The position numbers and the translations under genes were made by a program. A stretch of DNA of 64,000 nucleotides from a candidate division WOR-3 bacterium (lineage in GTDB: Bacteria > Hydrothermota > 32-111): NCBI GenBank assembly GCA_037481815.1, contig JBBFKX010000001.1, forward strand, positions 128,001 to 192,000, given 5' to 3'. Below, one piece after another: positions 12,196 to 41,878 of this stretch (position 1 is its first letter; every line of letters starts with the position of its first letter). The notes beneath the pieces were generated by a model, which did not search any database, had not been told where the DNA came from, and was given only the letters and a program-made list of their open reading frames with translations.

Positions 12196-13284
12196 ATGAA
12201 AAAAATTTTAATGTTTATACTTTTGCTCTTTACATATGTACTTATCTTTTCAACCGCCTCCCAGGCAGGTGCAGTTTTTCTACTGATTTATCCCGGTTCA
12301 AGAGCAGTTTCTCTGGGAAACTCTTATACTGCGTTATCAGATGATGCACTCGCAACCTATTACAACCCTGCAGGGATGGGTTTGCAGGAAAAGAAAGATA
12401 TAGTACTTATGCATTCTCCATGGCTTGTAGGCCTTGGAGATGATATGTATTATGAATTTCTTTCGGCTGTTATTCCGACAAATTATGGAGTTTGGGGTGG
12501 AAATGTTATCTATCTTACAACAGGTGAGATATCAGCAGAAGAAAATAATGACCCAACTGCCATATGGACTACTTTTGACTTAGCTTTATCTCTTTCATAT
12601 TCATACAAAATAAAAAATGATATCTCCTTGGGAGTAACAGGCAAATTCATCTATTCGTATCTTGCTCCTGATTGGGTTATTCAAAGATACATGGGAGAGG
12701 AGAGAGGAGGGCAGGGACAATCGGTTGCTCTGGATTTTGGTTTTTTAAAGAAATTTGGAACAAAAACATCACTTGGTATCTCCCTTTCAAATCTTGGACC
12801 TGGACTCAAATATCTTGCTGATGGCTCAGTAGATGATCTCCCAAGAACTCTTAGAATCGGGTTTGCTCAAACGATTATCGAGAATGAGTTGAACAAGTTA
12901 CTTTTCACAACAGATCTTACAAAGGTCATTGCAGGAATAAAACTCGATTCACTTTCAAAATCTGATTTTATTTTTGAACCATCAAAAATTCTCGATAAAT
13001 ATTATAACAATGTGGACCCTGTAACCGGCGATACCTTATATCTCTCAATGCTTGAAGCTGAATTTCTTGACACCTGGCTTGGGGCTGGAATTGAATATAT
13101 TTATTACAATCTTCTTTCTTTGAGGTTGGGATATTTCCTTGACTATTACGGGCAAAGGATGGGATTCACATTCGGTGGTGGTATTCAGGTAAAAAACAGT
13201 TTCAGACTTGATCTTGGTATAGATTCTGATATCTATTCTTTTCCAACTTCAAACTATAGAATCTCAATCGGTTTCAGGTGGTGA
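12196..13284 (+). CDS. PorV/PorQ-family outer-membrane beta-barrel
   Basis: FLLIYPGSRAVSLGNSYTALSDDALATYYNPAG N-terminal motif; C-terminal aromatic residue. Confidence 0.8.
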   Translation: MKKILMFILLLFTYVLIFSTASQAGAVFLLIYPGSRAVSLGNSYTALSDDALATYYNPAGMGLQEKKDIVLMHSPWLVGLGDDMYYEFLSAVIPTNYGVWGGNVIYLTTGEISAEENNDPTAIWTTFDLALSLSYSYKIKNDISLGVTGKFIYSYLAPDWVIQRYMGEERGGQGQSVALDFGFLKKFGTKTSLGISLSNLGPGLKYLADGSVDDLPRTLRIGFAQTIIENELNKLLFTTDLTKVIAGIKLDSLSKSDFIFEPSKILDKYYNNVDPVTGDTLYLSMLEAEFLDTWLGAGIEYIYYNLLSLRLGYFLDYYGQRMGFTFGGGIQVKNSFRLDLGIDSDIYSFPTSNYRISIGFRW

Positions 13285-31805: not shown

Positions 31806-33779
31806 ATGAAATATCTATTTTTACTTTTTTCAACCATTTCACTCGTTATTTTCTCTTTTGGGCTAACAATTTATGATGTCCAATATACCGAAAACATTTC
31901 AGGAGCATCTCCATATTCCGGGCAAACTGTTACAATTTCAGGAATAGTCACAAGGGTTTTTGGAGTTAATGTGTATATTCAGGATGATACCTTACCATGG
32001 CATGGAATTCTTGTGTATAACCCTCCAACTCCGGTTGAAGTTGGAGATTCTATAAGTGTTACTGGACAGGTTGTAGAGTACAATGGAAAGACAGAGATTT
32101 CAAATCCAACAACTCTGACCGTTCTTGCAAAGGGAAAAACGATCCCGGGCCCTGTGAAACTCAAAACAGGTGAAGCAGGAAAGGAAAAATGGGAAGGAAT
32201 GTTTGTACAGTTAGATGACTGTTATGTGAGTCAGATAATAACAGCAAGAGAATGGCAAATCGATGATGGCACAGGTCCTTTAACCGTATATGAAGATCTA
32301 AACTATCCTGTAACAATTGAATCTCTAAACGATACTTTCATTTTTGTTCGAGGATGTATGGATGAATACAATGGTAAATTTGAGTTGAGACCGTACGGAA
32401 ACGATGATGTTTTAAAAACACTCGATGGAAGTGGAATTTTAAGTGTTAATCCGAAATTTTTTAACGATTCTTCATATAACGATATAAGGTTGGATCTTAT
32501 TCCTAATGTTGACACAATCTACGGAACGATAAAATATCTGAAAATTGTTTTAAACAAAAAGGTTGTTACAGATTCTATAAAACTTGTTTGTGATTCATCT
32601 TTAATTTCTTTTGATTCAACAAAAATAACTTACGATACAACTTCAAATACAACAACGATTAACATCAGCGATATTACTTTTAAAGATACTATCAAGGTAT
32701 ATGTCAAAGATTATTATTTCACAAATGCTGATACGGTAAAGATGTATACAGGTGTTTCTCAAACACAATTACTTCCCGTATCATCCTTTTTTGTTATGAA
32801 GAAAATCCCCTTTGCTGATGTTATGAAGATTTCTGATGTTCAGTCAACAAACGATGGATACAACTCAAAATATACTGGACAGGTTGTTTCAGTAAAAGGA
32901 ATCGTAACTGGATCTTCAAATATTTTTTCACCAACAGCCACTTCAACAGGTTTTTATATACAGGATCAAACTGGTGGTGTTAACATATATTCGTCTTCAG
33001 ATCCAGCAAATCAAAAATTTAAAGAGGGGATAGAGATAATCGTCAGAGGAACCGTTACGGAATACAATGGATTGACTGAAATCAAATATTCTTCTCCAGA
33101 TACTGATGTTTACATTATAAATGATACTCTAGCCATCGTTGAACCTGAAGAACTTTTGAATTCACAGGGGATTTCTGAAAATGTTGAAGGAAAACTTTTG
33201 AAGGTCAGATATGGAAAAATTTTAACATATCCTGTTGACGCAGGAACTGGAAAGAATTTCCAGGTTCAAAATGGATTTTCGGTTATAGATGTGAGAATCG
33301 GGCAATCAACGGGTCTTTATCTTGATAATATTATGAATTCGATAGTCCCGGGTAATATACTGGATGTCACAGGAATAGCAGGGCAGTATGACAACCAATC
33401 TCCTTATACTTCAGGTTATCAACTTCTTGTTCGAAAAAGGTCAGATATAAACATTTTAAGTTTACCTGAAGATTCTACCTTTACGGTCTCACTATTTCCT
33501 AATCCTTTCTCTCCAGATTATGGACAGGTGTTGAGAATCGATTTAAAAGGTTTGAACAGTGAAAGATTCACACTGAAAATATATGATATAAATGGAAAGC
33601 ATATAAAAACTATCGCTGAAAACCAGCCTGGTTCGAATATATATCTATGGGATGGAAAAGACAAAAATGGAGCAAAATGTAACATAGGGATATATATACT
33701 CAATGTGTCTAAAATCGATTCGAATGGTTATATTACAAGTATCACAAAACCAGTTGTTATTTCAACAAAATTAAAATAG
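31806..33779 (+). CDS. secreted multi-OB-fold (YhcR/ExeM N-terminal-like) protein with FlgD-Ig/T9SS-like CTD
   Basis: Signal peptide; two I.DVQ...S.Y.GQ.V.(I/V).GIVT...YIQD...G.V.EYNG.TEI units, each followed by a second OB-like unit; C-terminal FPNPFSP...IYDING...WDGKD.NG...GIY. Confidence 0.75.
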   Translation: MKYLFLLFSTISLVIFSFGLTIYDVQYTENISGASPYSGQTVTISGIVTRVFGVNVYIQDDTLPWHGILVYNPPTPVEVGDSISVTGQVVEYNGKTEISNPTTLTVLAKGKTIPGPVKLKTGEAGKEKWEGMFVQLDDCYVSQIITAREWQIDDGTGPLTVYEDLNYPVTIESLNDTFIFVRGCMDEYNGKFELRPYGNDDVLKTLDGSGILSVNPKFFNDSSYNDIRLDLIPNVDTIYGTIKYLKIVLNKKVVTDSIKLVCDSSLISFDSTKITYDTTSNTTTINISDITFKDTIKVYVKDYYFTNADTVKMYTGVSQTQLLPVSSFFVMKKIPFADVMKISDVQSTNDGYNSKYTGQVVSVKGIVTGSSNIFSPTATSTGFYIQDQTGGVNIYSSSDPANQKFKEGIEIIVRGTVTEYNGLTEIKYSSPDTDVYIINDTLAIVEPEELLNSQGISENVEGKLLKVRYGKILTYPVDAGTGKNFQVQNGFSVIDVRIGQSTGLYLDNIMNSIVPGNILDVTGIAGQYDNQSPYTSGYQLLVRKRSDINILSLPEDSTFTVSLFPNPFSPDYGQVLRIDLKGLNSERFTLKIYDINGKHIKTIAENQPGSNIYLWDGKDKNGAKCNIGIYILNVSKIDSNGYITSITKPVVISTKLK

Positions 33780-33791
33780 TTGAGGTAAAAA

Positions 33792-34670
33792 ATGAAGAAG
33801 ATAGTTTTAATTTTCATTATATCTTTTTTACTTTTCCTGAATTCTTTTGCTGTGTTTGATTACACCCCTGGAAATGTTCAATCAAAAAGTATGGCTTTTG
33901 CTACAACCGGAATGCTTGCAGGGATAGATAATATAACAGTTAACCCCGCATCGATTGTGGGTCTTGATAATTATCAGGTTTCGGTTTCATATGAAAACCT
34001 TTATAGGTTCATACACACAGCATCAATCTCTGGTGGTTACTATTCAAACTATGGTAATCTTGGATTAAAATATTCTGAACTTTTTGTTTTGGGAGATTAT
34101 TCAAATATGGATTCTATCATTTCTACAAACACAAGATTACAGACCGAACGAGTTGTTCAGTTAACTTATGGTTTAGATTTCAACGATATTGTAATGGTTG
34201 GAACAAATATTAACTTTCTTTTTGTTGACCAAAAGATGGAAGGAATCGATGACAACAACAACATATATTATACCGCTGATTTGGGTATAATAGGAAGGGT
34301 CTACGATAGGTGGTTTGTTGGTTTATCTGTTTCTAATCTAACCGATACATATATTGTTGGTTCTTTGAGTAATGAAAGGTACTATATATCAAGAAAGGTC
34401 TCGGGTGGTTTAACCTTCAAACCCTATGAGAGTTTAACAACCAATTTCGATGTTTCAAAAATAAGTGGTGAACCAACATCGTTTGGATTTTCTTTCAAGT
34501 CGCAAATCGTGAAAAATGTTTTTACAATATTCTCAGGTGTAAGAAATTATCCAGCAACCCTTGGTCTTGGATTTGAATTGAAGATTAAAAATATATCACT
34601 TGATTATGGATACACAACCGTGATAAACCTTCCTTCAAGAAACCATATTCAGTTATCCTATTCGTTTTAG
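33792..34670 (+). CDS. PorV/PorP-like outer-membrane beta-barrel
   Basis: SMAFATTG...NPAS N-terminal motif; amphipathic strands; ends HIQLSYSF. Confidence 0.7.
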   Translation: MKKIVLIFIISFLLFLNSFAVFDYTPGNVQSKSMAFATTGMLAGIDNITVNPASIVGLDNYQVSVSYENLYRFIHTASISGGYYSNYGNLGLKYSELFVLGDYSNMDSIISTNTRLQTERVVQLTYGLDFNDIVMVGTNINFLFVDQKMEGIDDNNNIYYTADLGIIGRVYDRWFVGLSVSNLTDTYIVGSLSNERYYISRKVSGGLTFKPYESLTTNFDVSKISGEPTSFGFSFKSQIVKNVFTIFSGVRNYPATLGLGFELKIKNISLDYGYTTVINLPSRNHIQLSYSF

Positions 34671-34679
34671 GAGATCGTT

Positions 34680-37100
34680 ATGAAAAGGATATACATTTTT
34701 CTTTTGATACTCACAATTTTTTCAATAAGTTTTTCACAGGAGAAAATCGATATAAACAATTCTGATTTAAGTGTACTCGACACACTTTTTTTACCTGATG
34801 AAGTCATAGAAAATATAAAATTGTATTTAAAAAAACATGGAGAGATAAAATCGATTTATGAACTTATTGAAATAGATGGTGTCGATTATGAAATATTTTC
34901 AATATTAAAGGATAAGTTTGAAATCAAACCTGATACAACTCTTGATTCAACTTCGATATACATTTTAAGGATGCAGGATAGATTGGCAAGCGAAGAGAAT
35001 CCATCAAGGGGCGCTATTGACCTATGGGAAAGGCTGCTCGTTGAAAAGATCAATATCAACAAAGCTGGATTTGAACAGATTTCACAGATATATGGAGTCA
35101 GATTGACTGATGTTGAAGCCATAATGCAGGGGAAAAAGACAAGGACTTACAGATATCCAAGCGATCTCAGACGAACACCGAATCTAACCTATTATGCTTA
35201 TTCAAATTTAAGGAACTATGTTTCCTTTAAAGATGAGAAGAAGAAATTTTTCGATCTTTCTGGATATATCAGGACAAAAGTTAGATATTCAAACGATGAC
35301 ACTTATGGTTACTCCTCTTTTTCCTCACTAGCAAACGAACTATCTTATAGATTAAAACAACTCGAGGTTATAAACCCTGATTCCTCTAATCTTAGAAATA
35401 CTCTTTTAAAAGCTGGTTATACTTCTGAGGAGGTCGATTCACTGAAAAGTAGAATCGAGAGAGAATATTCACAGGTAGTGAAAAGAAAAATAGGTGCAAA
35501 CCTTTACAACAAAGTGACATTCAATGTTGGTAACAACCTTTCTTTCGGAACGCTCTTTACAGATTATTCAATACTTGGACAAAAAGGTTTCAAAGGTTAT
35601 GTTCAGATAAGGGATATCCCATTCATAAAAAATCTAATATTTGGAAATTATCGAGTGACTTTAAATGAAGGATTGATTTTTGATAACACCGATGAAAAAA
35701 GTTCAAGAATTTATGATAGAAGTTCTGGACTTTTTGTCGATGTAAACGAATCTTTTGCAAACAATCTTTTGGGAGTTGCTGTTGAAGGCAATCTCAGCAG
35801 ATTGTATTATCTTTTATTTGTTTCAGATAAGAAAAGAGATGGTGTTTTAAACAGAGATTCAACTGTAAACCTTCCATTTTTAACGAAAACTTACATCGAT
35901 GAATTCACAGATGTTTACAGGGAAAAAACTTTTGGAGGAAAGGTTGCTTTCAATATTGGAGGGATTTTCAATCTCCCACTTGTTACACAGATAGGTGTTT
36001 CGGGTTTCAATTCGATCTTCGATAGGAATTTCGTTCAGGATAGTTTGACTCTCGATATTCCATTCGATAAAGATAACCTTAATATTCCTGTGTACACAAA
36101 AGAATTTTCAGGTGATCGGATGAATGTTTATGGGTTGAATTTTCAGACAGCATACAAAAATATTTTCCTACAGTGTGAAGTTGCAAAACAGGAAAAGAGT
36201 TATGCTTATGTTTTGAAAAGTGGCGTTGTTTACAATGACTTTTATTTTGTTGGACTTTTGAGAAGATATGATCTTGGATATACAAATTTCTATTCAAGAC
36301 CTTTCTATGAACAATCGAGGTATGATGATACAGAATTTGAAAAAACTTACAGATTGATAGACCCACTGTTCACATTCATACTCGATGATCCAAGGCCAAA
36401 ACCTGAAGAGGGAATATACCTTGAAACAAGATATCGAATCCTTTCGAACCTGACATTGAACTACACATATCTTGATATATGGAGAACCCTCGACTACAAC
36501 CTACTCAATTACAGATTTCAAACTGAACTTGAATTAAGGCCTGTTTATCCTTTGAGAATCAGGTTGAAACATAAGATTCAGGAAAAAAATATCTATAAAA
36601 GTATAGTTTCAACAAATTCTCTTACTAATGAAACAACCTTAAGAATATTCACAGTTCTTGATAACAGTGATTATCTGAATTTTGAAGCAAGGTATGGAAT
36701 GGTAAAACTCACAACAGGTGGTAACCTCGAAAACAATTTTATCGATGGCTCTTTTGTCAATGTTTCATATGAGAAAAAGTTTACCGATTTTCTATCTTTA
36801 CTTGGGGGGGTTGCTACATGGAATACTGATGGAATGAGTCAGTGGATCCTTGAGGATAATGGAATTGATTTTCTCTATGGAAAAGGGAACAAGATGTATT
36901 TAACTTTTGTTGATCGAATATCAGATATCCTTTCGATGAGGATGAAGTTGTCTTTGAAGAATCAGGAAACAACATTTTCAGGTATATCACTTTATAACAA
37001 CAAGTATCGTTACATTGATTCTGATTTTCAGGTAATTTCAGATTTTAACGATTATAAAAATCTTTTAGGTTTATCCTGTCAGATAGATATCAGATGGTAG
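34680..37100 (+). CDS. ComEA-like helix-hairpin-helix domains fused to a large outer-membrane beta-barrel
   Basis: KIDINNSD...ELIEIDGV and KININKA...IYGV HhH-like units; long beta-strand-rich C-terminus ending DIRW. Confidence 0.72.
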   Translation: MKRIYIFLLILTIFSISFSQEKIDINNSDLSVLDTLFLPDEVIENIKLYLKKHGEIKSIYELIEIDGVDYEIFSILKDKFEIKPDTTLDSTSIYILRMQDRLASEENPSRGAIDLWERLLVEKININKAGFEQISQIYGVRLTDVEAIMQGKKTRTYRYPSDLRRTPNLTYYAYSNLRNYVSFKDEKKKFFDLSGYIRTKVRYSNDDTYGYSSFSSLANELSYRLKQLEVINPDSSNLRNTLLKAGYTSEEVDSLKSRIEREYSQVVKRKIGANLYNKVTFNVGNNLSFGTLFTDYSILGQKGFKGYVQIRDIPFIKNLIFGNYRVTLNEGLIFDNTDEKSSRIYDRSSGLFVDVNESFANNLLGVAVEGNLSRLYYLLFVSDKKRDGVLNRDSTVNLPFLTKTYIDEFTDVYREKTFGGKVAFNIGGIFNLPLVTQIGVSGFNSIFDRNFVQDSLTLDIPFDKDNLNIPVYTKEFSGDRMNVYGLNFQTAYKNIFLQCEVAKQEKSYAYVLKSGVVYNDFYFVGLLRRYDLGYTNFYSRPFYEQSRYDDTEFEKTYRLIDPLFTFILDDPRPKPEEGIYLETRYRILSNLTLNYTYLDIWRTLDYNLLNYRFQTELELRPVYPLRIRLKHKIQEKNIYKSIVSTNSLTNETTLRIFTVLDNSDYLNFEARYGMVKLTTGGNLENNFIDGSFVNVSYEKKFTDFLSLLGGVATWNTDGMSQWILEDNGIDFLYGKGNKMYLTFVDRISDILSMRMKLSLKNQETTFSGISLYNNKYRYIDSDFQVISDFNDYKNLLGLSCQIDIRW

Positions 37101-37108
37101 GAGGAAAA

Positions 37109-38269
37109 ATGAAGAAGTTTTTTTATATTATTCTTATGAGTTTTTTCTGTGTTAATCTTTTTTCATATGTCTCTTTATACAATACTGGACTTGGAGATTT
37201 TAACACATCACTTTTCAGTAAAGGTGCAGCTCTTGGAAACAACGATTTTTTCTTCAATCCGCTATTGAATCCAACGGTGGAATGTAAAACCACAAACTAT
37301 TTGGTTTCAATCGGTTTTTATGGATTATCAACAAGGGAAACAAGATCAAAGTATATTTTTGATTCATACGAAAACAGTATCGCAAAAAAGAATGTTTACG
37401 ATAACACTTTTCTTTATGGTGAACCCGCTTACATTATGGGATATATGCCTTTATCAGATTTTGGTCTCTATTTAGGTTATGAAAATTACATAAACAACGA
37501 TTATACATACAGACAGATATACAGAAACGATAACTATGTTATACTTTACGATGAAAGTTATGTCAGAATTGGAAATGTGAACGCATACTTTCTGAGTTTG
37601 AATTACAGATTTTATGGATTCGCCATGGGAACAAATTTTTCAATAATGCAGGGAGATGGTTCATCCGATTACTCAAAACTTTTTGTAGATCCTTCTTTTA
37701 TTGATTCAACATCATCAACAAAAGAGAATTACTCTGGTATCAGAGGAAATATTGGAATTTCATACAATCATAAAGATAACTTCATCTTAACTTTTGTTTA
37801 CAACATCAGAACATACCTGACAGTCAACAGGGTGACCGATATCATCGCTTCCGATACGAACCTTTTGACTGAAACCGTCTACTATATAATCCCTGATATA
37901 TTCTCTTTTGGTCTGGAATACAGAGCAAAAAATGTTGCGCCGGCTACTTTCTATTATTCTCTGAGTTATGAAAGATGGAGTGAACTTAACGGTGATTTTA
38001 ACGATTACAACGATCTGATCAAGTACAATATCGGTGTTTTACATGAACTCAACAAAAACATTGATCTTATGTATGGTTTTATGTATGAACCGTACAGAAA
38101 GGATAACAGGCTGGTTGATATAGGTTTTGCAACCGGACTTACCTACAAATTGGGTATGACAGAGTTTTCTGTCGCTGTTAACTATAAGAATATCAACTAT
38201 GAAAGAGAAGAAGTTTATTATAACGATAGAGTTTTGAAATTCGTTGGTGATGTTTCAATCAAATTTTAG
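37109..38269 (+). CDS. outer-membrane beta-barrel (FadL/PorV-superfamily-like)
   Basis: Signal peptide; GLGD...ALG...NP motif; alternating aromatic strands; C-terminal F. Confidence 0.6.
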   Translation: MKKFFYIILMSFFCVNLFSYVSLYNTGLGDFNTSLFSKGAALGNNDFFFNPLLNPTVECKTTNYLVSIGFYGLSTRETRSKYIFDSYENSIAKKNVYDNTFLYGEPAYIMGYMPLSDFGLYLGYENYINNDYTYRQIYRNDNYVILYDESYVRIGNVNAYFLSLNYRFYGFAMGTNFSIMQGDGSSDYSKLFVDPSFIDSTSSTKENYSGIRGNIGISYNHKDNFILTFVYNIRTYLTVNRVTDIIASDTNLLTETVYYIIPDIFSFGLEYRAKNVAPATFYYSLSYERWSELNGDFNDYNDLIKYNIGVLHELNKNIDLMYGFMYEPYRKDNRLVDIGFATGLTYKLGMTEFSVAVNYKNINYEREEVYYNDRVLKFVGDVSIKF

Positions 38270-38276
38270 GAGAATT

Positions 38277-38852
38277 ATGAAAAAGATAATTTTTATTTTA
38301 TTACCTTTCATGATCTATTTAACAATCTTTTCACAGGAAGAGTTGAAACTTTTCCCTGTTGAAGGTGTGTTACCTATGAATGATAGGGACTATACAAAAA
38401 CTCTTGTAAAACTTTTTGACAGTTCAAAAAAAACAATACATGCTGTTATCTATCAGGTAGGTTACTATCCGGATTATCCTGAAGGTGAACCAACCGATAT
38501 CCAGAATGCTTTGATAAATGCAGTCAAAAGAGGTGTTAAGGTTGTGATAATCGTGGATCAATCCTCCTGGAATCCTTCTCTGTCAGTTAAAAATGATGAG
38601 TATTTAAAATATATGAGACAGTTTGGAATTGAAGTATACTTTGATATGCCCGATATAACAACACATGCAAAATTCGTTGTTGTAGATTCAACCATAACTG
38701 TAATCGGATCCACAAACTGGAGTTTTTATGCGCTTGCAAAAAACAATGAATGTGCGGTTGCTGTGAAATCAAAGGATATATCTTTAAAATATGAAGATTT
38801 TTTTGAAAAACTTTATCAGTTCAAATCTGATAGTTTAACGATAACACCTTAG
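38277..38852 (+). CDS. secreted PLD-family (Nuc-like) nuclease/phosphodiesterase, single HKD
   Basis: HAKFVVVD...GSTNWS..A..KNNE; signal peptide. Confidence 0.85.
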   Translation: MKKIIFILLPFMIYLTIFSQEELKLFPVEGVLPMNDRDYTKTLVKLFDSSKKTIHAVIYQVGYYPDYPEGEPTDIQNALINAVKRGVKVVIIVDQSSWNPSLSVKNDEYLKYMRQFGIEVYFDMPDITTHAKFVVVDSTITVIGSTNWSFYALAKNNECAVAVKSKDISLKYEDFFEKLYQFKSDSLTITP

Positions 38853-38860
38853 GAGTTCAT

Positions 38861-39427
38861 ATGAAGAAGTTAATATTTTTCTTATCGATATTCTCTTTTT
38901 ACCTGTTATTCTCTGATAGTTTAAATTTTCTCCCAGCAGAGGGTGCAATGACAATGAACAACAGGGAATATTCAAAAAATTTGTTAAAACTGATAAAAAG
39001 TTCAAAAAAGACGATTCATATAATGATGCTTGAAGGCGGTTATTATCCTGAAAGAAAGGAAGGTGTGAACCAGAAGATTTATGAATCTTTGTTTGATGCG
39101 GTTAAAAGGGGTGTTGATGTTAAGATTGTTCTTGATCAGTCAGGTTTCAATCCGAATCAGAGTATAAGGAACAAAGATCTTGGGGACTTCTTAAAAAGTG
39201 GTGGTGTAAAGGTTTTTTATGATGATCCTGAAGTGACACTACATACAAAAGCGATGGTAATAGATTCCATTTTTGTTATAGTTGGTTCAACAAACTGGAG
39301 TTATCATGCACTTGATAAAAACAATGAGGCATCAATCCTGATAAAATCGGATACACTGGCTCATATATATGAAAATTATTTTTCTAAAATACTTGAAAAT
39401 TCATCTGATAAAATAACAGTTTTTTAA
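38861..39427 (+). CDS. secreted PLD-family (Nuc-like) nuclease/phosphodiesterase, single HKD, paralog
   Basis: HTKAMVID...GSTNWS..A..KNNE; signal peptide. Confidence 0.85.
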   Translation: MKKLIFFLSIFSFYLLFSDSLNFLPAEGAMTMNNREYSKNLLKLIKSSKKTIHIMMLEGGYYPERKEGVNQKIYESLFDAVKRGVDVKIVLDQSGFNPNQSIRNKDLGDFLKSGGVKVFYDDPEVTLHTKAMVIDSIFVIVGSTNWSYHALDKNNEASILIKSDTLAHIYENYFSKILENSSDKITVF

Positions 39428-39436
39428 GAGGTAAAA

Positions 39437-40345
39437 ATGAAAAAAAATTGTTCCATTTTATTCATTTTTCTTTTCTTTTTATCAATTTTTTCAAAAGATA
39501 TCGTAATAATACATACAAACGATATAAGAAATGTTCTTGAAAGAAGGGAAGCAACTTTTATAAACCCTGATTTTCCGCCAGTTCTTGGAGGAATCTATTC
39601 ACTATCGACAGCTATCAAATATGAAAGAGAAAAAGCTCTTAAAGAGGGGGCTATATTTCTTCTTTTTGATTCTGGCAATTTTGTTTTTAAAACTGTTGAT
39701 AACGATTCTGTCGATTTCATTAAACCTGCTTTGTATTTTAACCACATGGGTTATGATATCGTGAATCTTGGAATTGATGAGATAATAGCAGGTCCAGAGT
39801 TCTTTTTAAATTCTGTAAAATTATTTAATCCAAAACTTATCTCCTCAAATTTAAAGATTCTGAATTCAGATTTACAGCCTGAACGTTATGTGATAATCGA
39901 AAGAGAAGGGGTCAGAATCGGTGTATTCGGTTTATTATCTGAATATGCTTTATTGAATCTGGATGAAGATGTTGCTGAAAATTATATCATAAATAAAGAG
40001 ATCGATGTTGCAAAAGAGATGGTCGATATATTGAAAAAAAATAGATGTTCAATTATAATTGGTTTAACATCGGTTGGTCTTGAACATGACAGAATAATTG
40101 CAGAAAATGTGGAAGGTATAGATATTATTTTTGGTGGATTCGATGGAGTAGGTTTAAGGAATGCTATCGAAACACCAAAAAATCATACGATCATAATGAA
40201 AGGATACGGAGAGTTATCAAGTTTTGATAAGTTGATTTTGAAAGTTGATGATTTTGGAAGGATAATAGATTATCGATCCGAAGTTGTTACTCTTTTTGAA
40301 GAGAGATATCCAGAGGATAAAGAACTTGAAAAAATTTTAAAATAG
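39437..40345 (+). CDS. 5'-nucleotidase-like metallophosphoesterase N-domain, degenerate active site
   Basis: IIHTND, LFDSG, MGYD, RIGVFGL and GIDIIFGG scaffold; His ligands absent. Confidence 0.7.
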   Translation: MKKNCSILFIFLFFLSIFSKDIVIIHTNDIRNVLERREATFINPDFPPVLGGIYSLSTAIKYEREKALKEGAIFLLFDSGNFVFKTVDNDSVDFIKPALYFNHMGYDIVNLGIDEIIAGPEFFLNSVKLFNPKLISSNLKILNSDLQPERYVIIEREGVRIGVFGLLSEYALLNLDEDVAENYIINKEIDVAKEMVDILKKNRCSIIIGLTSVGLEHDRIIAENVEGIDIIFGGFDGVGLRNAIETPKNHTIIMKGYGELSSFDKLILKVDDFGRIIDYRSEVVTLFEERYPEDKELEKILK

Positions 40346-41854: not shown

Positions 41855-41878
41855 AGGGGAATTTATTTCCCCTTTTTT
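41853..41878 (+). terminator. putative intrinsic terminator
   Basis: AAAGGGGAA-TTTAT-TTCCCCTTT followed by a T run. Confidence 0.65.

Follow-up and report, generated by a model that had tools for sequence, protein, structure and literature searches.

A candidate nucleic-acid scavenging cassette built around a helix-hairpin-helix barrel protein in WOR-3 and other candidate phyla

Sediments hold much phosphorus, nitrogen, and carbon in the form of extracellular DNA. To our knowledge, experiments support only two ways for DNA to cross the outer membrane: the competence machinery of pilus and secretin, and the recently described TonB-dependent Ddb and Riemerella systems of Bacteroidota. Here, these are compared with a cluster of seven genes (P1 to P7, all on the plus strand) that occupies positions 31806 to 40345 of a 64,000-nucleotide stretch of DNA (the window; positions 128001 to 192000 of the first contig) from a candidate division WOR-3 bacterium, whose genome comprises 1.58 Mb in 20 contigs. 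The cluster is interpreted, with a probability of roughly 60%, as an envelope-spanning cassette for nucleic-acid scavenging, in a lineage-specific form with phospholipase D (PLD) nucleases and a dead 5'-nucleotidase. In Bacteroides thetaiotaomicron, the ddbABCDEF locus is reported to combine genes for secreted nucleases with those for a TonB-dependent transporter (DdbC) and a DUF5689 protein (DdbD), the latter modeled as a HIN-like DNA-binding lid of DdbC; deletion of the locus abolishes DNA depletion (PMC12478041). In Riemerella anatipestifer, the homologues of DdbC and DdbD (RA0C_RS04915 and RS04920) and a helix-hairpin-helix (HhH) protein (RS02645) are each reported to be essential for transformation (PMC8459023).

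Like the Ddb and Riemerella loci, the cassette places a surface protein with DUF5689/HIN-like oligonucleotide/oligosaccharide-binding (OB) folds beside an outer-membrane barrel and includes candidate secreted or periplasmic nucleases, a logic similar to that of polysaccharide utilization loci; the HhH protein that Riemerella also needs has a counterpart in HhH modules fused to P3. The differences begin with the channel, for which there is no TonB-dependent transporter but a 24-strand barrel with fused HhH, lacking both plug and receptor domains. The receptor is predicted to be anchored by a type IX secretion system (T9SS) C-terminal domain (CTD) in a PorV-like barrel, whereas the Ddb/Riemerella receptor is anchored by lipid; furthermore, the nucleases belong to the PLD family, and there are two extra PorV/FadL-like barrels. 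The cassette, found in several candidate phyla, shares the Ddb receptor type, combined with another channel and T9SS-based anchoring, and is regarded here as a variant of the known DNA utilization loci around an uncharacterized channel family. A full-text literature search on DUF5689, transformation, and ComEA/DNA uptake found no paper describing an HhH-barrel fusion. An earlier interpretation of the window (the sequence-only reading) had proposed a surface DNA receptor displayed through its own barrel adaptor, an outer-membrane channel with an HhH ratchet, and periplasmic nucleases, all working without pilus or TonB. Its domain calls for P1 to P7 are borne out by profile searches and AlphaFold2 (AF2) models, with degenerate motifs in P7.

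Neighborhood conservation, which the sequence-only reading had named as a check, was found across phyla. By a word-indexed search, P3 has 77 relatives at E ≤ 0.001 and occurs in 30 of the 41 genomes of its phylum. Eighteen loci were cut from these phylum relatives and scored by tblastn: family f1, which includes the window, holds the whole P1-P7 set with the same flanks; families f4 and f6 hold P1-P2-P3-P4-PLD-P7 with other flanks; and families f2 and f5 hold P1 to P4 as far as the contig ends and P2-P3-P4-P7, respectively. In family f8, P3 stood alone by tblastn, and profile comparison placed a P2 homologue directly upstream (probability 99.7%), among housekeeping genes. A scan of one genome per species returned 122 P3 relatives, and the 80 loci kept for counts come from WOR-3/TA06, Fermentibacteria (Aegiribacteria, Sabulitectum, and Hyd24-12), Edwardsbacteria, Latescibacterota, and others. 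Neighbors were counted by profile searches of the open reading frames (ORFs) of each locus, limited to loci with enough flank. P3 is immediately preceded by P2 in 64 of 66 loci and followed by P4 in 71 of 73, P1 accompanies P3 in 58 of 60, and a P7 homologue does so in 60 of 62. P1, P2, P4, and the P7 homologue are all present around P3 in 50 of 52 loci; because this core recurs in other genomes, the arrangement is far beyond chance, and P1-P2-P3-P4-P7 is a conserved, uncharacterized cassette of several candidate phyla. At 50% identity, the P3 family comprises 158 representative clusters at E ≤ 1e-30, including fragments and proteins that consist of the N-terminal module only.

Some loci were irregular. 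The P3 gene of locus L063 (7950 to 10447) is broken into three ORFs and has no cassette neighbors, every cassette gene of L102 is split, and an 816-residue ORF of L094 (6567 to 9017) covers the positions of P4 and the 5'-nucleotidase; these anomalies may be decay, fusion, or assembly errors. In WOR-3 family f5 and in loci of the Edwardsbacteria/TA06 type, the next gene after the cassette encodes a RecJ-like DHH/DHHA1 protein (L018, 4518 to 6170 on the minus strand; L019, 13832 to 15463 on the plus strand; L073, 15174 to 16841; L112, 15325 to 16872; L114, 15464 to 16951). The RecJ-like genes were not counted as cassette parts, and the f5 copies (L018 and L019) encode no signal peptide.

The center of the cassette, P3 (34680 to 37100; 806 residues), combines a signal peptide, two (HhH)2 modules at about residues 22 to 82 and 122 to 182, and a barrel at residues 193 to 806, with a helical insert (214 to 267) after strand 1; the protein ends in IRW. 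Its AF2 model has about 24 strands, a predicted local distance difference test score (pLDDT) of 85.4, and a predicted template modeling score (pTM) of 0.80. The whole protein matches HHH_3 at 36.5 bits, past the Pfam cut-off of 27, through two stretches that singly remain below it (23.7 and 22.2 bits). The resemblance to ComEA (HHH_3, TIGR00426/TIGR01259) lies in the two (HhH)2 modules, their predicted periplasmic position, and the D-I-N-x-A cap, which is kept in both modules when aligned to the canonical ComEA of the host; module 2 is mildly basic (net charge 0 to +7 in 31 orthologues). Structure comparison gave the usher pores PapC (Z 15.7, root-mean-square deviation [rmsd] 5.4, 359 aligned residues) and FimD (Z 15.4) as the nearest folds, with MtrB at Z 14.1, and Foldseek returned generic barrels alone (TM-score ≤ 0.34). 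Kinship with the chaperone-usher pores was rejected, as only the 24-strand barrel superposes and there is no usher Pfam match, leaving a shared strand number only; a primary role as T9SS translocon was set aside because a SprA-like ORF is already present in the genome. Neither P3 nor the other barrels, P2 and P4, matched Plug, TonB_dep_Rec, or CarboxypepD_reg in the Pfam scan. Look-alikes in a protein atlas, to be taken as leads only, are Bacteroidota clusters of 529 to 594 residues labeled "ComEA family" or "HhH domain" (0.95) and DUF6029 (0.93). The tandem HhH N-terminal module of P3 (about 200 residues) also occurs alone, in proteins of about 200 to 230 residues, and on proteins of about 770 residues with a different C-terminal part, one of them labeled Caldisericota; P0275, P0282, P0290, P0292, and P0298 are relatives of this module outside the P3 architecture.

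P1 (31806 to 33779; 657 residues) is a predicted secreted surface protein with four OB folds, an immunoglobulin-like (Ig-like) domain, and a T9SS-type CTD. Its Pfam matches are FlgD_ig (30.3 bits; cut-off 27) and OB (26.1 bits); against DUF5689 (PF18942) it reaches 20.6 bits, with a cut-off of 28.6, yet aligns to profile positions 3 to 217 of 217, and 26 of the 33 members of its family match DUF5689 at E ≤ 0.001, the best at 1e-16. A further match, to the ExeM/NucH model, is confined to the N-terminal portion of that model (66 bits; cut-off 300). Scores with the sorting-tail profiles are below cut-off (Por_Secre_tail, 18.3 bits; TIGR04183, 20.1 bits), and no solved structure was found by sequence at E ≤ 0.01. 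In the AF2 model (pLDDT 88.3, pTM 0.63), the OB folds lie at about residues 17 to 112, 113 to 207, 334 to 448, and 445 to 553, the Ig-like insert at 210 to 336, and the CTD at 557 to 655; the OB folds form two HIN-like tandem pairs, the second of which corresponds to DUF5689. The best Foldseek match is the p204 HINab complex with double-stranded DNA (dsDNA) 5z7d (E 5e-8), and the fold searches also matched structures 6za2 and 5m11, which stand for the T9SS attachment pairs PorV-PorU and PorQ-PorZ. With VIA-align, each OB unit reaches Z 11 to 12 against the OB folds of aminoacyl-tRNA synthetases, RPA, and MCM, and the CTD aligns with those of PorU (Z 11.4, rmsd 2.6, 93 aligned residues) and PorZ (Z 10.2). 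P1 probably belongs, by its sequence profiles, to the DUF5689/HIN-like OB family, and its FlgD_ig score and model show a C-terminal sorting domain of the kind carried by T9SS type A cargo. OB modules like those of P1 also occur elsewhere, in fusions with PLDc_2, Metallophos, LTD, and Endonuclease_1 domains; the PLD-OB fusion P0180 was rejected as a relative, its PLD similarity to P6 being weak (E 3e-5).

The adjacent gene encodes P2 (33792 to 34670; 292 residues, ending in YSF), a small outer-membrane barrel of the PorV/PorQ (FadL-like) type that matches PorV_fam (NF033709) at 38.4 bits, or at 30.3 bits in the genome-wide scan, and misses the curated cut-off of 90. PorV-type barrels hold T9SS CTDs, and PorV-PorU and PorQ-PorZ are attachment pairs. 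A complex predicted between P2 (residues 20 to 292) and the P1 CTD (555 to 657) scored 0.90 in three runs, compared with 0.02 for the best of three controls, the mark used being one that 116 of 157 solved complexes reach, as do 2 of 215 mismatched pairs; contact agreement between runs was at least 97%, and the partner pLDDT was at least 87. On this model, P2 is the predicted holder of the P1 CTD. The likeness to PorV-PorU and PorQ-PorZ consists in a FadL-like small barrel predicted to bind the CTD of a retained surface protein; unlike PorV and PorQ, P2 misses the PorV_fam cut-off by a wide margin, has its gene next to those of its presumed client and of P3, and is kept with P3 where no P1 is nearby. 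A second, shorter P1-like gene (434 to 461 residues), with an FlgD_ig or CHU_C tail where scanned, was seen 3' of the 5'-nucleotidase gene in L073 (13155 to 14495), L112 (13144 to 14490), L114 (13196 to 14581), and L072 (4818 to 6122), so that these loci have two CTD proteins for two PorV-like barrels.

P4 (37109 to 38269; 386 residues from the ATG at 37109, the longest ORF starting at 37094) is a second predicted outer-membrane barrel. It has no Pfam or NCBIfam match; comparison with the P2 family by hhalign gave a probability of 96% (E 4.7e-9), and its neighbors in the protein atlas include Toluene_X/FadL clusters (0.97 to 0.98). P4 is thus probably a distant, PorV/FadL-like relative of P2. 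The barrel proteins P2, P3, and P4 end in F, W, and F, respectively.

P5 (38277 to 38852; 191 residues from the ATG at 38277, the longest ORF starting with TTG at 38244) and P6 (38861 to 39427; 188 residues) are paralogous single-HKD PLD proteins with PLDc_2 scores of 82.9 and 87.6 bits and with relatives among Nuc, NucT, DrmC, and Zucchini-type enzymes. The best NCBIfam matches of P5 are DrmC (55.1 bits) and NucT (53.8 bits), all below cut-offs; the solved relatives of P6 are led by the Nuc endonuclease 1byr (E 4.5e-8), followed by mitochondrial cardiolipin hydrolase (9lkx/4ggj) and NucT (6ehi). The motif HxK(x)4D(x)6GSxN is intact in P5 (where it reads GSTN), in P6, and in 17 of 17 orthologues. 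With Nuc of Salmonella typhimurium (1byr) and NucT of Helicobacter pylori (6ehi), P5 and P6 share a length of about 170 to 190 residues, a signal peptide, and one HKD motif; they differ in falling below the NCBIfam equivalog cut-offs, in forming two paralogues, and in that their activity is predicted. The earlier view of them as nucleases agrees with their sequences, which look like Nuc and NucT rather than like lipid enzymes. Families f4 and f6 have one PLD copy and family f1 has two, and the sequences suggest that P5 and P6 may pair as a heterodimer.

P7 (39437 to 40345; 302 residues) is a predicted secreted, truncated relative of the metallophosphatase domain of 5'-nucleotidases. Metallophosphatases are recognized by the motifs DxH, GD, GNH[DE], H, and GH; in P7, aligned to human CD73 (E 3e-12), DxH has become DxR, GD has become GN, GNH has become GID, H has become S, and GH has become GF. 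At the seven key sites P7 reads D-R-N-I-D-S-F, compared with D-H-D-N-H-H-H in 55 of 56 full-length homologues, and thus keeps one of seven metal or catalytic residues. The protein stops at residue 302 and matches neither Pfam Metallophos nor 5_nucleotid_C. The same division runs through the 80 loci, where 55 of the 56 full-length homologues keep all seven residues and 12 of the 13 short ones keep at most one, the thirteenth being a fragment of a split gene. Among the 12 P7 orthologues of the phylum, two full-length proteins of family f5 (507 and 530 residues) keep every motif together with Metallophos and 5_nucleotid_C (the latter present in the L018 and L019 homologues), whereas the ten short ones do not. 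The proportions of nonsynonymous and synonymous differences in P7 are 0.126 and 0.668 (pN and pS). Compared with UshA and CD73, P7 retains homology to the N-terminal metallophosphatase domain, and intact homologues hold the same cassette slot elsewhere; P7 itself lacks the C-terminal substrate domain and six of the seven metal or catalytic residues. Truncated and with one of seven residues left, P7 is therefore not a nucleotidase here, and the idea that it dephosphorylates nucleotides has to be abandoned. PLD genes occur in 12 of 62 loci, in all 12 cases with a short, dead P7 and in none of the 47 loci with the full-length form; the gain of PLD and its association with a dead P7 may represent a single evolutionary event.

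Pfam scans of the flanks identified, just 5' of P1 in nine distant loci, a gene for a solute-binding protein (SBP; SBP_bac_1/8) of an ATP-binding cassette (ABC) importer; some of the nine also carry two permeases and a MalK/UgpC-type ATPase. Of the 56 loci with 1.6 kb or more of upstream sequence, 43 have an SBP gene on the cassette strand no more than 300 bp before the cassette, and in WOR-3 family f6 (L045 and L053) two permeases and an SBP directly follow P7. Among the loci counted, family f1, with the window, and family f4 have no linked importer gene; "MALK" matches 1.4 kb upstream in f1 loci are LptB and were discarded as importer parts. The importer parts are nearest to UgpB, UgpA, UgpE, and UgpC in NCBIfam, with UgpC alone above cut-off, and a profile of eight cassette SBPs scores 226 to 227 bits with 7c0t/7c0f, compared with 188.8 bits with E. 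coli UgpB. 7C0F is given as a uridylyl-3'-5'-phosphoguanosine-binding protein in Supplementary Table S5 of PMC12718374, whose text puts it next to UgpB. This dinucleotide (U3G)-binding protein of Thermus thermophilus is the closest described counterpart of the cassette-linked SBP, and UgpBAEC resembles the permeases and the ATPase; both differ in that the ligand of the cassette SBP is predicted and that the importer is unlinked from the cassette in this genome.

The preferred reading starts from what was observed: the domains and folds, the conserved synteny, HKD motifs that are intact, and an active site that P7 has lost. P1 would be exported by the T9SS of the host and stay on the surface with its CTD docked in the P2 barrel, where its four OB folds would bind DNA or RNA outside the cell. 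Fragments would then cross the outer membrane through the 24-strand barrel of P3, whose periplasmic HhH modules would bind the incoming strand or dock a periplasmic partner; P4 would contribute another PorV/FadL-like barrel to this complex. Cutting of the nucleic acid in the periplasm would fall to P5 and P6, the PLD proteins of Nuc type. The pathway would be completed, in most other lineages, by a functional 5'-nucleotidase and by a UgpB-like ABC importer whose SBP resembles a dinucleotide-binding protein; in this lineage, the 5'-nucleotidase appears to have turned into the noncatalytic P7, and the importer is encoded at other sites of the genome. Binding of nucleic acid by the P1 and P3 modules, its passage through P3, the nuclease activity, and the substrate of the importer may all follow this scheme.

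Several findings weigh against nucleic-acid scavenging. The HhH domains of ComEA are marked by Gly-hydrophobic-Gly (GhG) hairpins and a basic surface. Relative to the host ComEA, which is encoded separately, P3 has lost the GhG (Gly-x-Gly) signature in all four hairpins, and module 1, fused like module 2 to the barrel, is acidic (net charge -7 here, -10 to +3 in 31 orthologues); DNA binding by these modules is therefore putative. A phmmer search with the N-terminal 171 residues of P3 found nothing meaningful at E ≤ 1 among solved structures and no ComEA. Thus, of the proposed ratchet, two ComEA-type HhH modules stand, whereas their hairpins are degenerate. P1 of the window is below the DUF5689 cut-off (20.6 compared with 28.6 bits). 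Since PorV-type barrels hold such domains, the score of the P2-P1 CTD pair may mirror the likeness to solved PorV-CTD pairs, without showing specificity; the pairing was seen for one pair, in a genome with 6 PorV-like barrels and 44 CTD proteins. Display of P1 through its own barrel adaptor accordingly has the in silico score in its favor and, against it, the tie of P2 to P3 even without an adjacent P1. P7, although under purifying selection, is catalytically dead as judged from its residues and no nucleotidase in this lineage, and 47 of 62 cassettes have no recognizable nuclease, only the 5'-nucleotidase. The importer genes of the host lie apart from the cassette (an SBP orthologue on contig C2 and a permease on contig C3), and the host SBP alone scores higher with UgpB (128) than with 7c0x (108). 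The functional roles of the P3 family are predicted from genes and models, the nrdR/purC neighborhood is lineage specific according to tblastn of the phylum loci, and the 80 loci are dominated by Fermentibacteria, which are related to one another, so that the counts overstate independence. The receptor-channel-nuclease model as a whole is partly supported: it keeps the backing of cross-phylum co-occurrence, DUF5689 kinship, the in silico barrel adaptor, and the Nuc/NucT-like PLD proteins and loses that of P7 and of the HhH hairpins.

The alternatives have to accommodate the same observations. In a Riemerella-type transformation route, P1 would capture dsDNA, P3 would import it to the periplasm, the HhH modules would stand in for the periplasmic HhH protein, and ComEC would take up a single strand to be recombined. 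The host has ComEC and DprA, and the PLD nuclease NucT of H. pylori supports transformation, a precedent in favor of this route. The same can be said of R. anatipestifer, where the DUF5689 protein, the neighboring barrel, and the HhH protein are each reported as essential for transformation (PMC8459023). However, the ancestral cassette is flanked by a small-solute ABC importer and has an active 5'-nucleotidase, which suggests degradation for food, not transformation. This cluster, moreover, encodes two predicted nucleases, the cassettes examined contain no competence gene, and the host is already equipped with a secretin, pilus-type ATPases, and a canonical ComEA. Transformation is thus considered unlikely, and nutrient scavenging of nucleic acid is the best reading.

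Scavenging might instead be directed at nonnucleic phosphodiesters, such as phospholipid head groups or glycerophosphodiesters, with the PLD proteins as phospholipases, P2 and P4 moving lipidic molecules, and a Ugp-like importer taking up the product. The PLD superfamily does include phospholipases and cardiolipin synthases (P6 matches cardiolipin synthase at 46.5 bits), P4 has FadL-like neighbors, and the importer parts, including the host SBP, have their best matches among Ugp proteins. This explanation is nevertheless rather improbable in view of the OB/DUF5689/HIN-like P1 and the HHH_3 match of P3, of Nuc endonuclease as the best solved PLD relative, and of the SBP profile, which favors the dinucleotide-binding protein by about 38 bits; most cassettes, furthermore, lack PLD and have a 5'-nucleotidase that includes the nucleotide-binding C-terminal domain. 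A comparably low probability is assigned to a surface-display or envelope module of the T9SS world that has no function connected with nucleic acid, in which the HhH modules would dock proteins, the OB folds bind another polymer, and P3 serve as a structural or export barrel. The degenerate hairpins, the acidic module 1, and the noncatalytic P7 would fit such a module, as would the PorV-like P2 and P4, the PorU/PorZ-like CTD of P1, the minimal P2+P3 pair of family f8, and the pilus ushers, which export proteins, as the nearest folds of P3. Against it stand the steady association with 5'-nucleotidase, PLD nucleases, and a dinucleotide-binding-like SBP, the fusion of P1-like modules to nucleases, the SprA-like translocon already present, and the absence of an usher Pfam match in P3.

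Within nucleic-acid scavenging, a bolder proposal, put forward tentatively and with clearly less confidence, is that P3 forms the channel of a translocon of a new type, which would carry nucleic acid over the outer membrane with no need for pilus/secretin or TonB. Its 24-strand barrel would bring along its own periplasmic, ComEA-derived tandem module; the two PorV-like barrels at its sides would keep OB-fold receptors delivered by the T9SS above the pore, and oligonucleotides would be handed on to periplasmic nucleases and a dinucleotide-type ABC importer. If true, the cassette would represent a third solution for moving nucleic acid across the outer membrane and a marker for DNA scavenging in metagenomes, and it could be a main route of extracellular-DNA turnover in several uncultured phyla of sediments and anaerobic digesters. 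Entry points for biochemistry are the dead 5'-nucleotidase kept under selection and the link to an importer of the dinucleotide-binding type.

The close packing of the cluster is as had been described. Counted from the preceding stop, the gaps of P1 to P7 are 1, 12, 9, 8, 7, 8, and 9 bp, so that 7 to 12 bp separate the seven co-directional genes, and 12 bp lie between P7 and the next gene; these figures use the internal ATG starts of P4 (37109) and P5 (38277), and the longest-ORF starts (37094 and 38244) would give overlaps with the preceding genes. The N-terminus of each of the seven proteins reads M-K-K/R and runs into a hydrophobic stretch (peak hydropathy over 12 residues, 2.4 to 3.4); by inspection, all are judged to carry probable signal peptides. 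Compared with a relative of the same genus, the ratio of nonsynonymous to synonymous substitution rates (dN/dS) is 0.03 to 0.08 for all seven genes, with dS near saturation, and about 0.03 for P3; by this sequence measure, all seven genes are under purifying selection.

Upstream of the cluster lie genes for a lipid A acyltransferase and two OstA/LptA-like proteins, lptB, and rpoN; downstream lie an aldehyde dehydrogenase gene (aldh), a small ORF, nrdR, and purC, the last two lying where the sequence-only reading had placed them. The adjacency of lptB, rpoN, and aldh is not kept outside family f1. The sole convincing terminator-like hairpin near the cluster (41856 to 41871, plus strand) follows aldh, and lptB, rpoN, the seven genes, and aldh may therefore form one long transcription unit here and within this genus. 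A promoter scan was uninformative in this AT-rich DNA (91 sites, compared with 75.8 ± 9.2 in shuffles).

Elsewhere, the host genome encodes ComEC, DprA, a secretin, a canonical ComEA (a 117-residue ORF; HHH_3, 63.7 bits), six T2SSE-type ATPases above cut-off, one TonB-dependent receptor, and two ExbD proteins. Independence from pilus and TonB, as previously suggested, thus holds for the gene content of the cluster and not for the genome, which has a secretin, type IV pilus-type ATPases, a TonB-dependent receptor, and ExbD; with these and with ComEA, ComEC, and DprA, the cluster is not the only conceivable DNA route of the organism. The T9SS is represented by a SprA_N match in an 1,816-residue ORF, 44 Por_Secre_tail matches (33 above cut-off), and 6 PorV_fam matches, 3 of them above cut-off and one of these 3 inside the window: a bona fide PorV-family gene at 12265 to 13278 on the plus strand (198 bits; cut-off 90) that is part of the T9SS equipment of the genome.

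A second, different "barrel-like plus ComEA" protein of the host is encoded on contig C2 near 396 kb (locus L034, 1465 to 2502, minus strand). The first 270 or so residues of this 345-residue ORF are beta-rich and aromatic, and its C-terminus forms a canonical HHH_3 module (47.5 bits) in which the hairpins read GLG and GIG. The ORF is reminiscent of RA0C_RS02645, the HhH protein of Riemerella, in which the HhH region is given as residues 236 to 301 (PMC8459023). Finally, the labels of two records, L039 ("Acetofilamentum sp.") and L044 ("uncultured Bacteroidales"), look wrong: Acetofilamentum is classified in the Bacteroidaceae at NCBI, yet both genomes are placed in the genus or family of the window itself.

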